Assembly: GCA_021818465.1 (NCBI GenBank)
Contig: JAKAEA010000001.1
Span: 375,712 to 439,711, forward strand
Length of the DNA stretch: 64,000 nucleotides
From: a bacterium
GTDB lineage: Bacteria > Patescibacteriota > Minisyncoccia > Phycocordibacterales > JAKAEA01
Direction: 5' to 3'
Each line of letters begins with the position of its first letter. Position 1 is the first letter of the stretch. The notes beneath the pieces are model-generated. The model made no database searches and was not told the DNA's origin. It saw only the letters and a program-made list of their open reading frames with translations. Position numbers and translations under genes: made by a program. Shown piece by piece: positions 51,371 to 54,231 of the stretch.

Positions 51371-54231
51371 TGAAATCGTACGATCCCAAAAAAATAGAGA
51401 AGAAATGGCAATCCGTGTGGCAAAAAAGTGGTATATATACAGCTGCTGATAAAAGCCGCAAACCGAAATTTTACGGTCTTATTGAATTTCCTTATCCTTC
51501 CGGTGACGGTTTACATGTTGGCCATGTTCGTTCCAACACAGCTATGGACATTATTTGTCGCAAACGTCGCATGGAAGGGTACAACGTTTTGTATCCGATA
51601 GGTTGGGATGCTTTTGGTTTACCTACAGAAAATTACGCCCTGAAAACTGGTACGCCGCCTAAGGTGGTTACTAAACGCAACACCGCCACGTTTCGCCGCC
51701 AACTCCAAGCGCTCGGTTTTTCATTTGACTGGTCGCGAGAAATTAACACCACTGACCCCGCATATTACAAATGGACGCAGTGGATTTTTCTCCAATTGTG
51801 GAAACATAATCTTGCCTACAAAAAGAAAACGCTCATCAATTGGTGTCCCAAAGATAAAATTGGTTTAGCGAACGAAGAGGTGATTGATGGCTGCTGCGAA
51901 CGCTGCGGTACACCAGTGGAAAAACGTCAGAAAGAACAGTGGATGCTTGCTATTACTCAGTACGCTGATCGACTTGATGCTGATTTAGACACGGTCGATT
52001 ATTTACCTGAAATTAAAGCCCAACAAAGAAATTGGATTGGTCGCAGTGAGGGTGCGGAGATAGCCTTTTCAGTAGAACATGCCGATTCAAAAATCAATGT
52101 GTTTACCACCCGTGCCGACACACTGTTTGGTGTGACCTACATTGTACTTGCGCCAGAACACGATTTGATTAAAATTTTGAAACCAAAAATATTGAATGCA
52201 TCTGACGTTGAAGCATACATCAGCACCACCACGAAAAAATCTGAAATTGAACGTACTGATATTAAAAAAGAGAAAACCGGTATAGAGCTCAAGGGCATTA
52301 AGGCTATTAATCCAGCCACGGGTGAGAAAATCCCTGTGTGGATTGCCGATTACGTTTTGGCTGATTATGGCACCGGTGCGGTAATGGCCGTGCCTGCTCA
52401 CGATGAGCGCGATTGGGAATTTGCTCAAAAATATGCACTGCCAATCAAAGAAGTAGTTTTACCTACTGTTATCGATAAGCGAAATCCGCCAATGCCAGGT
52501 AAAAAATCGGTTGAGCGAAAAAATGTACACGCTCTTGTTCGTGACCCTGCAACAGGTAAATATCTGGGTTTGAAATGGAAAAAATTTAATTGGCTTACGT
52601 TTCCAATGGGCGGTATTGAAGATGGAGAAAATGCAATAACAGCAGCCAAACGAGAAGTTGAGGAGGAAACGGGATTCAAAAATCTCAAACTTATTAAAGT
52701 AATTACTGGTCAAGCGCGTGCCGAATATTTTGCCGCTCATAAAGATCAAAATCGAATTTCTTATACCACAGCGGTACTTCTAGAATTACTTGATCATACT
52801 CAAGCACCAGTGAGTGTCGAAGAAAATGAAAAATACGACATTGTTTGGCTCGATGAGTCAAAGTTAAATTACGAACACATGACTCACGCTGAAATTGGAA
52901 TATGGATGCATAAGCTTGCTGTTAAAAATCCTGCATATACCGATGAAGGAATTCTTGTTAACTCCGATTCATTTACTAACCAAACATCAAAGGAAGCGAG
53001 GGGTGCTATTGCTCGAAAATTTGGAAAAATTGTTACAACGTATAAACTTCGTGATTGGGTATTCTCTCGTCAGCGCTACTGGGGTGAGCCGATTCCTCTT
53101 GTGCATTGTAAACAGTGTGGTTGGCAAGCTGTTCCGGAAAAAGATTTGCCGGTTACGTTGCCACCAGTTAAAAATTATCAGCCAACTGATACAGGTGAAT
53201 CGCCATTGGCCGCTGATACCCCTGCTATGAAAAAGTGGCGCACAGTGCAGTGTCCCACCTGTGGTGCTCCCGCCACTCGCGAAACTGATACTATGCCCAA
53301 CTGGGCTGGTTCTAGTTGGTATTTTTTGCGTTATTGTGATCCCAAAAACAAAACGTCCCTCGCCAATCAACTAAAATTGAAAACGTGGCAACCAGTAGAT
53401 TGGTACAACGGTGGTATGGAACACGTCACACTACACCTCTTATATTCGCGCTTTTGGAATAAATTTTTATTTGATATCGGCATTGCTCCAACAAGTGAGC
53501 CCTACGTTAAACGCACCGCCCACGGTCTTATTTTAGCCTCTGATGGTGAAAAAATGTCAAAGTCGCGCGGTAATGTTATCAATCCAGACCACATTGTTGC
53601 CCAATTTGGTGCCGACACCGTACGTCTCTATGAAATGTTTATGGGTCCTTTTAATCAAGCGGTAAGCTGGAGCACCGAGGGCATTATAGGTCCGCGTCGT
53701 TTTCTGGAAAAGGTGTGGCGATTACAAAAAAAAGTACGTGCTAAAAAAGTACATACTGGCAAAGATGGAGTATTCGAAAACGTACTGCAAAAAACAATCA
53801 AAAAAGTGAGTGATGATATTGAAGCAATGCAATTCAATACTGCTATTTCATCGCTGATGATTTTAACTAATGATATGGAGAAAAAATCAGAAATTTCTTT
53901 GCGGGCGTATGAAATACTATTGCGGCTTATGGCTCCTTTTGCTCCTCATAGTACCGAAGAAATTTGGCACATACTTGGTCATAAAAAATCTATTCATTTA
54001 GAAGCATGGCCATCTGTTGATACAACTAAAATACAGCGTGAGGTCGTCACTATTATAGTACAAGTGAATGGTAAAGTTCGTGGAAGTTTTCAAACATCCG
54101 CACATAGTAGTGAGACGGAAGCAACTACGCAAGCTCAATCTGTACCTAGTGTTAAAAAATGGCTCATGGATAAAACTATAGCGCGCGTTATATATATTCC
54201 TGATCGATTAATTAATATAGTTATTACATAA
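51370..54231 (+). CDS. leuS: Leucyl-tRNA synthetase with an inserted Nudix hydrolase domain
   Basis: HIGH ([10 protein letters not shown]), the editing-site motifs TTRADT and [28 protein letters not shown], and KMSKS. Between the editing core and RDWVF lies an insert of about 200 aa with a perfect Nudix box, [23 protein letters not shown], at nt 52609-52677. Confidence 0.9.
   Translation: [953 protein letters not shown]

Follow-up and report, generated by a model that had tools for sequence, protein, structure and literature searches.

In a 64,000-nucleotide stretch of a Patescibacteriota genome (GenBank assembly GCA_021818465.1, contig JAKAEA010000001.1, positions 375,712 to 439,711; from here on, the window), the leucyl-tRNA synthetase (LeuRS) gene leuS encodes a protein that carries a Nudix domain within CP1, its proofreading (editing) domain. 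That this insert is a real Nudix fold embedded in a LeuRS we regard as practically certain, and the architecture is common to well over a hundred lineages in public databases.

The Nudix insert and its site in LeuRS

The domain was recognized by motif, profile, and fold. A search of all six frames of the window returned a single match to the Nudix box, the one in leuS, which the original prediction had located to the exact nucleotide (Table 1). With the whole protein as query, the Pfam NUDIX model (PF00293) matched residues 405 to 499 with 47.5 bits and an E value of 2e-12 (gathering cut-off, 21.1 bits), and the excised segment reached 51.1 bits (E value, 1.7e-13). AlphaFold modeled the whole protein, using 101 homologues, with a predicted local distance difference test (pLDDT) score of 89.5 and a predicted template modeling (pTM) score of 0.78, the blocks of the insert lying at ca. 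90 to 95. Modeled alone (residues 361 to 530, 39 sequences), the insert gave a pLDDT of 94.1 and a pTM of 0.87 and showed the strand-helix pattern of a Nudix α/β/α sandwich of ca. 130 residues. The complete Nudix fold suggested in the original prediction is borne out by the profile score and the confident model, and the PF00293 match sits, as anticipated there, inside the editing region, whose model it splits. The same scores and fold rule out a chance occurrence of REVxEEXGF in an ordinary LeuRS insertion.

Two alignments define the insertion site. In the alignment with Thermus thermophilus LeuRS, residues 364 to 520 take the place of a 12-residue loop (363 to 374), and when the editing domain with the insert removed was compared with the CP1 domain of Streptococcus pneumoniae (4k47), the gap corresponded to loop 362 to 370 of the latter and T524 to its T373. 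The net insertion amounts to ca. 145 to 150 residues, with 157 residues replacing 12 (T. thermophilus) or 7 to 9 (S. pneumoniae). The Pfam editing model is split around the insert at ca. position 145 of 185, with some 40 positions left for the part behind it, its positions 1 to 144 ending at residue 367 and positions ca. 122 to 183 resuming past the Nudix domain, which puts this domain inside CP1 and not between CP1 and the catalytic core. Thus, of the location first given, the CP1/editing region stands and the position at the border with the catalytic core does not.

The loop concerned is I4b, a long loop between helices α2 and α3 of CP1 with no conservation across the bacteria (Hu et al. 2013, PMC3747510). 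According to the same work, T373 of S. pneumoniae lies ca. 4 Å from the ligand in the editing pocket, and in archaeal and eukaryal LeuRS an insertion called I4ae lies over the pocket's opening. As far as these alignments tell, the Nudix domain is an I4b insertion of giant size that sits on the rim of the proofreading pocket. It shares with the insertions described before the variable I4b loop beside the pocket, and I4ae would be at the corresponding I4 position, a placement taken from its name alone, with no alignment to an archaeal or eukaryal CP1. The I4 insertions known so far, a loop or a helix, are noncatalytic, whereas this one is an enzyme fold in its own right and brings an active-site motif along. 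The insert bears on structure-based views of the LeuRS editing pocket, the site of the benzoxaborole drugs, given that it occupies the I4b loop lining this pocket.

The residues of the box are strongly conserved. G414, G415, E429, E433, and G435 are invariant, and E420, R428, and E432 are kept in 99 to 100 of the 101 homologues. Outside the box, R383, K458, N461, R462, and W493 of the insert are also invariant, and position 453 is aromatic throughout (tyrosine in 71 sequences, phenylalanine in 30). The mean pairwise identity was 49% for the insert, 46% for the anticodon-binding region, and 74% for the catalytic core, values biased by the choice of the loci, which were selected by similarity to the insert. 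Synonymous sites were saturated in every pair except the closest one (L001), for which the insert gave a nonsynonymous divergence (dN) of 0.12 and a synonymous divergence (dS) of 1.27, the one usable and rough value. The retention of E429, E432, E433, and R428 makes it quite probable that the domain is catalytically active. With both the Nudix catalytic residues and the LeuRS sites invariant, the insert appears to work as an enzyme domain in a synthetase that is itself functional, and the conservation of the box together with the synthetic and editing sites would give three hydrolytic or synthetic centers per protein.

The host protein shows, at the level of sequence, what is expected of a bacterial LeuRS. 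The NCBIfam equivalog model TIGR00396 (leuS_bact) scored 982.4 bits (cut-off, 548.4) over two stretches split by the insert, LeuRS entries of the PDB matched with a best E value of 2e-217, and the predicted model gave Foldseek TM scores of 0.72 to 0.75 to the T. thermophilus and Escherichia coli enzymes. The HIGH and KMSKS signatures are accompanied by a complete CP1 editing site (TTRADT, YGTGAVM, and AHDERD), in which G334 is a further invariant residue. All the hallmarks listed in the original prediction (HIGH, TTRxDT, AHDERD, the motif at residues 561 to 572, and KMSKS) are present, and its reading of one continuous polypeptide is confirmed by the single ORF (open reading frame). Both leucylation and editing would be expected from these conserved sites. 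Compared with the bacterial LeuRS of T. thermophilus (1H3N/2BYT) and E. coli (4AQ7), the order of domains and the sites are the same at 33 to 36% identity. However, the Nudix domain stands instead of the 12-residue CP1 loop, and the leucine-specific domain is absent, residues 725 to 728 spanning 581 to 637 of T. thermophilus in the alignment to 1h3n (582 to 636 are gone). This domain, which precedes KMSKS in the T. thermophilus and E. coli enzymes and is missing here at residues 725 to 732 (nucleotides 53545-53565), is also missing in the relatives and in an insert-less LeuRS (locus L086).

Table 1. Features of leuS and of the encoded protein, in coordinates of the window
Feature	Residues	Nucleotides	Strand	Remarks
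leuS, LeuRS with embedded Nudix domain	1-953	51370..54231	+	Single uninterrupted ORF, 953 aa + stop
HIGH signature (HVGH)	49-52	51514..51525	+	H49, G51, and H52 invariant in 101 homologues
CP1 editing domain, N-terminal part	220-363	52027..52458	+	Pfam tRNA-synt_1_2 at aa 220-367 (model positions 1-144 of 185)
T-rich motif (TTRADT)	246-251	52105-52122	+	T246, T247, R248, D250, and T251 invariant in 101 homologues
AHDERD motif	343-348	52396-52413	+	H344, D345, R347, and D348 invariant in 101 homologues
Nudix domain in the I4b loop of CP1	364-520	52459..52929	+	157 aa
Nudix box (GX5EX7REUXEEXGU)	414-436	52609..52677	+	Every fixed position matched
X-loop/family signature	450-462	52717..52755	+	Aromatic Y453, 17 aa after the end of the box (F436)
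CP1 editing domain, C-terminal part	521-556	52930..53037	+	Pfam editing model positions ca. 122-183 resume
Catalytic domain, second half	557-790	53038..53739	+	Conserved motif at aa 561-572 and KMSKS
KMSKS signature	728-732	53551-53565	+	Conserved in 101 homologues
Anticodon-binding and C-terminal domains	791-953	53740..54228	+	Pfam Anticodon_1 at aa 802-912

Distribution of the fusion and of the Nudix subfamily

The identical protein is recorded in NCBI, ENA, and Logan, on two contigs, the longest of 549 kb. Among the best 120 homologue clusters (51 to 78% identity), PF00293 was present in every one, the Nudix box was intact at the same site in 117, and the spacing between the AHD and RDW motifs was 216 to 223 residues in nearly all. 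When one genome per GTDB species was scanned, at least 95 species matched, a lower bound given that two narrow peptide patterns built from six close sequences were used, and in all 80 loci kept the domain was located inside the LeuRS ORF. Most of these 80 ORFs were longer than 900 codons, and the shorter ones were truncated by the ends of contigs. The same scan included long LeuRS-containing ORFs at L080 (1,559 codons), L055 (1,306), and L044 (1,171), and two spacing outliers, L044 with 259 residues and L071 with an apparent 91.

The original prediction had considered a chimeric assembly and the search for the fusion in related genomes. The continuous ORF and the recurrence of the leuS-Nudix fusion in the 120 clusters and the 80 independent species genomes rule out both a chimera and a frameshift. 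Considering also that the same protein comes from three databases, that PF00293 scores above its cut-off, and that the fold is confidently predicted, we give an artifact of any kind (chimeric assembly, hidden frameshift, or chance motif) a negligible probability.

The named lineages among the carriers include the Yanofsky-, Wildermuth-, Wolfe-, Yonath-, Kaiser-, Taylor-, and Kerfeldbacteria and the Paceibacterota, the Yanofsky- and Kerfeldbacteria being classified in the Parcubacteria group of the Patescibacteria by the NCBI. Many metagenome-assembled genomes (MAGs) bear the labels “uncultured Candidatus Saccharibacteria,” “Gammaproteobacteria,” “Thermodesulfobacteriota,” or “Nanoarchaeia”; we did not rely on these labels, since the proteins cluster with named lineages of the Parcubacteria group. 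In short, the Nudix-bearing LeuRS is no isolated case but the norm in an entire radiation of uncultured bacteria.

This architecture is well documented in sequence databases and apparently undescribed and uncharacterized. It is visible in precomputed Pfam annotations under the names “leucyl-tRNA synthetase” or “class I tRNA ligase family protein,” several copies being called just the latter, with the corresponding impact on annotation. Our search for literature on LeuRS or other aminoacyl-tRNA synthetases (aaRSs) with Nudix, the candidate phyla radiation (CPR), or Patescibacteria, with most subscription journals outside its scope, found nothing relevant, in agreement with the first reading of the sequence, to which such an architecture was not known; for the editing domains of aaRSs in Patescibacteria it yielded no papers. 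A review of the Nudix clan that runs to 178,000 characters (PMC5389931) contains neither the word tRNA nor the word synthetase, and no model named for a Nudix-bearing LeuRS was found among the 25 NCBIfam matches listed of 34. An isoleucyl-tRNA synthetase with an N-acetyltransferase domain (NCBIfam NF040702, ileS_w_GNAT) is likewise a class I aaRS with an extra enzyme domain, but both the enzyme and the synthetase are different; the comparison is by the name of the model only, and the weak match to it runs through the shared synthetase core. Accessory domains of aaRSs are classic in eukaryotes; an autonomous enzyme inside a bacterial proofreading domain is unusual.

Some relatives carry additional modules. 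Longer LeuRS homologues, of 1,100 to 1,350 residues, have second and third Nudix domains of the same subtype placed before CP1 (multimodule proteins P0011, P0073, P0102, P0105, and P0122 to P0126), and the boxes of the extra copies checked were canonical. In some proteins there is an α/β serine-hydrolase domain (PF06821), before CP1 or after the RDW motif depending on the protein, and the LeuRS P0058 combines the Nudix insert with a HAD-type phosphatase domain (residues 653 to 808).

A profile of the insert was run against 1.84 billion representative proteins and retrieved 158 at an E value of ≤1e-30 and 440 at ≤1e-10, matches so few that the subtype must be sharply separated from ordinary Nudix proteins. 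Its marks are an N-terminal extension, (I/V)DxxNPPxxGKKxVER, the aromatic X-loop, and an invariant K..NR. Among the best 150 matches, 113 were linked to LeuRS by custom hidden Markov models (13 of those with two to three copies) and a further six were LeuRS fragments according to Pfam, bringing LeuRS or fragments to ca. 119. Some 25 were free-standing proteins of 154 to 200 residues that kept the N-terminal extension, and one (P0267) was a class II prolyl-tRNA synthetase (ProRS) with the Nudix domain between the anticodon-binding and C-terminal domains. A homology search with the latter identified five ProRS-Nudix clusters (P0267 and P0271 to P0274), whose closest insert-free relatives are labeled Nanoarchaeota or Woesearchaeota. 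The insertion into this class II enzyme is independent of the one in LeuRS and, like the recurrence in multiple copies, strengthens the interest of the Nudix-aaRS link. The neighbors of the ProRS-Nudix genes (loci L091 and L092) are another Nudix gene, an AAA_18 kinase-like gene, MazG, and a phosphoribosyl pyrophosphate (PRPP) synthetase.

The gene contexts of nine free-standing members could be compared. One that is 46% identical to the insert (P0143) precedes a 951-aa leuS by 2 bp; this leuS has the insert too, and the synteny is that of the window. Another (P0206) stands, in three contigs, 2 bp before a leuS lacking the insert. A third (P0171) precedes by 10 bp a gene starting MTKYNPSKIEKKW, a LeuRS N terminus. 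P0195 is found 2.4 kb upstream of the insert-less leuS of L086, in a same-strand cluster with methionyl-tRNA synthetase (MetRS), TatD, and an HD 5'-nucleotidase-like gene, a second Nudix gene standing immediately before leuS, while P0183 is 0.7 kb upstream of a ProRS-Nudix gene. P0224 sits between arginyl-tRNA synthetase (ArgRS) and a 1,184-aa class I aaRS, surrounded by dUTPase, thymidylate kinase, three other Nudix genes, and an ITPase-like NTPase. P0191 follows fpg at 4 bp in three contigs (L083 to L085), and the context of P0181 and P0230 was uninformative. Thus, six of the nine are within 2.5 kb of an aaRS gene, three of them immediately upstream of leuS, in a sample that is small and phylogenetically nonindependent.

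Fusion combined with this neighborhood pattern is a classic sign of a functional link, and we consider functional coupling of the subfamily to aaRSs rather likely. It constitutes a Rosetta-stone signal connecting aminoacylation with nucleotide (possibly Ap4A [diadenosine tetraphosphate]) metabolism. The free-standing genes adjacent to leuS also suggest a route for the fusion, in which the I4b loop took up a neighboring Nudix gene.

Three further observations concern these relatives. The 1,184-aa class I aaRS next to P0224 (L093:7094-10648; tRNA-synt_1, Anticodon_1, and DUF5915) has a His_Phos_1 match between its two tRNA-synt_1 matches. The position of P0191 after fpg, which encodes formamidopyrimidine DNA glycosylase, hints at an 8-oxoguanine-related role for this member at least. 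Finally, a sub-branch with the signature HWSEDKYIGLKWKKV comprises the inserts of two LeuRS (P0005 and P0090) and the free-standing P0195 and P0171; in the box of these LeuRS inserts position 7 has changed from E to Q and position 15 from R to T, and in the free-standing forms position 7 is Q and position 15 is not R.

Putative substrate and role of the inserted domain

The most likely function of the insert, to judge by its residues and predicted fold, would be that of an active pyrophosphohydrolase on a nucleoside polyphosphate. We propose that in an ancestor of the lineage the Nudix gene adjacent to leuS was captured into CP1 and that the tethered domain acts on a diffusible substrate of this class. 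Dinucleoside polyphosphates (Ap4A and its relatives) may be cleaved asymmetrically to a nucleoside monophosphate and a nucleoside triphosphate (NMP and NTP). The Ap4A family would arise here as side products of the reaction of aminoacyl-adenylate with ATP, and the fusion would ensure that the clean-up enzyme is made in a fixed 1:1 amount with the synthetase, while aminoacylation and posttransfer editing would run as in an ordinary bacterial LeuRS. An Ap4A-type substrate for the tethered domain is a tentative proposal, possible rather than probable. From the three ideas first put forward (Ap4A, aminoacyl-adenylates, and nucleotide alarmones), a polyphosphate substrate is plausible, and the hydrolysis of aminoacyl-adenylate is the least likely.

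Ap4A is favored because it belongs to the only class of nucleotides that the aaRSs make themselves, and because RppH/NudH and MutT1, known as bacterial Nudix asymmetric Ap4A hydrolases (PMC7705103), cleave it. The association of the subfamily with several aaRSs also points to a by-product common to these enzymes and not to a leucine-specific one. In addition, the nearest structures with a known function are RppH, MutT1, and Ap4A or diadenosine hexaphosphate (Ap6A) hydrolases. The closest solved structure overall is 2azw (16% identity), a free-standing MutT/nudix protein of Enterococcus faecalis from structural genomics, whose PDB description gives no function and which is therefore no help for the substrate. 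It is followed by E. coli RppH (13.9), Ndx1 of T. thermophilus, an Ap6A hydrolase (13.5), and then lupin Ap4A hydrolase and DIPP1 (13.3 each), as well as MutT1/Rv2985. Foldseek also retrieved MutT1, RppH, and several Ap4A hydrolases with the insert, and the best PDB profile match was the lupin Ap4A hydrolase.

The X-loop offers a further clue. A tyrosine located ca. 16 to 18 residues downstream of the Nudix box correlates with activity on diadenosine polyphosphates (ApnA) (Dunn 1999, in PMC5389931). Positions 450 to 454 of the insert are R/K, A/S, E, Y/F, and F/Y in the 101 sequences, so that the marker position (Y453) is always aromatic, which is a further reason to favor Ap4A, and not always tyrosine; the marker is a correlate only. 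The asymmetric Nudix ApnA hydrolases (RppH/NudH/YgdP, MutT1/Rv2985, the plant and animal Ap4A hydrolases, and Ndx1) share with the insert the fold, the box, and an aromatic X-loop residue ca. 17 residues downstream. However, the insert is only 16 to 22% identical to them and differs by its own N-terminal extension, the K..NR motif, and its embedding in, or adjacency to, aaRSs.

Assignment to a Nudix subfamily by sequence was tried and abandoned, as the NCBIfam and PDB matches covered mostly the region of the Nudix box, were below threshold, and did not discriminate. Neither the proline of the ADP-ribose pyrophosphatase X-loop, among the common residues listed for the 101 sequences, nor the SQPWPFPQS motif of NADH pyrophosphatases, in the sequence of the insert, was found. 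The RppH models (PRK00714.x) gave 20 to 29 bits against cut-offs of 116 to 259, so the domain was not filed as RppH or NudH. These low scores also oppose an RppH-like pyrophosphohydrolase of RNA 5' ends, which would remove triphosphates or Np4- and NAD-type caps while tethered to an RNA-binding synthetase. Mature tRNA has a 5' monophosphate, so the RNA bound by the synthetase would not be a substrate, and both the free-standing forms and the insertion in ProRS at an unrelated position contradict a role that depends on the geometry of the tRNA. In spite of the structural proximity of RppH, we find decapping quite improbable.

The main rival to the Ap4A reading is sanitation of the nucleotide pool. 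In that case the domain would be a house-cleaning enzyme hydrolyzing damaged or noncanonical (d)NTPs, either as a MutT-like 8-oxo-(d)GTPase or as a general NTP pyrophosphatase, and tiny genomes would have it fused or adjacent to abundantly expressed translation genes such as leuS for the sake of coexpression only, mechanistically unconnected to aminoacylation. Several of the neighborhoods described above fit: the member behind fpg (MutM) in three contigs, the cluster of P0224 with dUTPase, thymidylate kinase, ITPase-like NTPase, and three other Nudix genes, MazG and a MutT-like Nudix beside ProRS-Nudix, and the HD 5'-nucleotidase-like gene in L086. The top structural matches include MutT1 of Mycobacterium smegmatis alongside several structures of the MutT family, and the HAD and serine-hydrolase domains also acquired by relatives suggest that LeuRS is a general scaffold. 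However, the association is specific to aaRS genes, chiefly leuS, with six of nine free-standing members and two independent fusions, in LeuRS and in ProRS. The equivalog for the MutT 8-oxo-dGTP diphosphatase (TIGR00586) scored 19.8 bits against a cut-off of 97.9, and by structure the MutT types do not outrank RppH, Ndx1, the Ap4A hydrolases, and DIPP. Overall, we judge sanitation somewhat unlikely, although a serious competitor.

The location of the insert raises the option of a module coupled to editing, either a lid comparable to I4ae that tunes the entry of the tRNA 3' end or an activity on noncognate aminoacyl-adenylates, which would amount to a third proofreading site. The insertion point is three to four residues from T524 (the counterpart of T373 of S. 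pneumoniae, close to the pocket ligand), the pocket opening is covered by I4ae, which would hold the corresponding I4 position, and both the site and the spacing are constant across the lineage. PMC3747510 cites Liu et al. (2011) for a modulation of editing by a peripheral insertion of CP1. Nevertheless, the same subfamily also occurs free-standing, before CP1 in multicopy LeuRS, and within ProRS, which implies that the position at the pocket is not required. The hydrolytic residues of CP1 are all retained, leaving no need for a replacement. Moreover, aminoacyl-adenylates contain a single phosphate in an acyl-phosphate anhydride and not the diphosphate linkage that defines the substrates of Nudix enzymes. 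We attach little probability to this option.

A last alternative is a noncatalytic Nudix fold, which would sense nucleotides or, in a structural or interaction capacity, regulate LeuRS or bring in a partner. Nonenzymatic Nudix proteins do exist, such as CF Im25/NUDT21, which binds Ap4A without hydrolyzing it (PMC7705103; PMC5389931). Furthermore, the domain has been kept in a few lineages with degenerate boxes, namely the LeuRS P0005 and P0090 (E to Q and R to T) and P0008 (EE to SE), and likewise in the ProRS forms P0267, P0271, and P0272, so catalysis is not always retained. Against this, the box keeps its catalytic Glu, Arg, and Gly invariant or nearly so in the 101 LeuRS sequences and is intact in 117 of 120 clusters, the pattern to be expected from an active enzyme, which makes a noncatalytic role in general an improbable one.

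Returning to the proposal of an active ApnA hydrolase, several points weigh against it beyond the degenerate boxes and the scores below cut-off with every curated Nudix subfamily model, RppH and MutT among them. The structural neighbors are only 16 to 25% identical and span many substrate classes, the best one being without a known function, and phenylalanine takes the ApnA marker position in 30 of the 101 sequences. Neighborhoods with fpg, dUTPase, thymidylate kinase, ITPase-like, MazG, and HD nucleotidase genes speak rather of nucleotide sanitation. LeuRS is not known to be among the strongest producers of Ap4A. More generally, substrate specificity of Nudix enzymes is notoriously hard to read from sequence.

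On a more speculative note, and we think it unlikely, ultrasmall symbiotic prokaryotes may use their aaRSs as platforms for a damage-control layer that destroys by-products derived from adenylates. Such a layer may cover the Parcubacteria and, from the ProRS fusions, Nanoarchaeota- or Woesearchaeota-like archaea. It may consist of the aaRS-specific Nudix domain, joined physically to the synthetase so as to act where the by-products arise, in one to three copies, sometimes with serine-hydrolase, HAD, or histidine-phosphatase domains, and its targets may be Ap4A, Ap3A, or even noncognate aminoacyl-adenylates once released. If true, the Nudix domain at the mouth of the LeuRS pocket would be a third proofreading or clean-up site without counterpart in model organisms.

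Neighborhood of leuS in the window

As befits a genome of this kind, the window has a GC content of 43.7% and compact same-strand genes, with the synteny Flavodoxin_2, YchF, other genes, leuS, sigma70_r4/HARE-HTH, one more gene, YceG, and MnmA. Immediately before leuS (50380-51370) there are a PLDc_2 gene (PLD-like nuclease/phospholipase) and a 156-aa ORF, which overlap by 8 nucleotides. The product of the latter is hydrophobic over an N-terminal stretch and matches an OB fold weakly, and the last base of this ORF is the A of the leuS ATG; the three genes look like one operon. In relatives, the slot before leuS is occupied by a DUF5671 gene and a free-standing Nudix gene. Downstream, a protein with sigma-70 region 4 and HARE-HTH (54329-55375) and a 416-aa protein with no Pfam match (55434-56684), whose homologue in a relative is marked DUF8128, are both in conserved synteny. 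Elsewhere, the window contains a giant ORF of 2,913 aa on the forward strand (15333-24074) and a tight cluster of tRNA-Ala(UGC), tRNA-Ala(CGC), and tRNA-Pro(GGG) (46561-46818), with three more tRNA genes at other positions.

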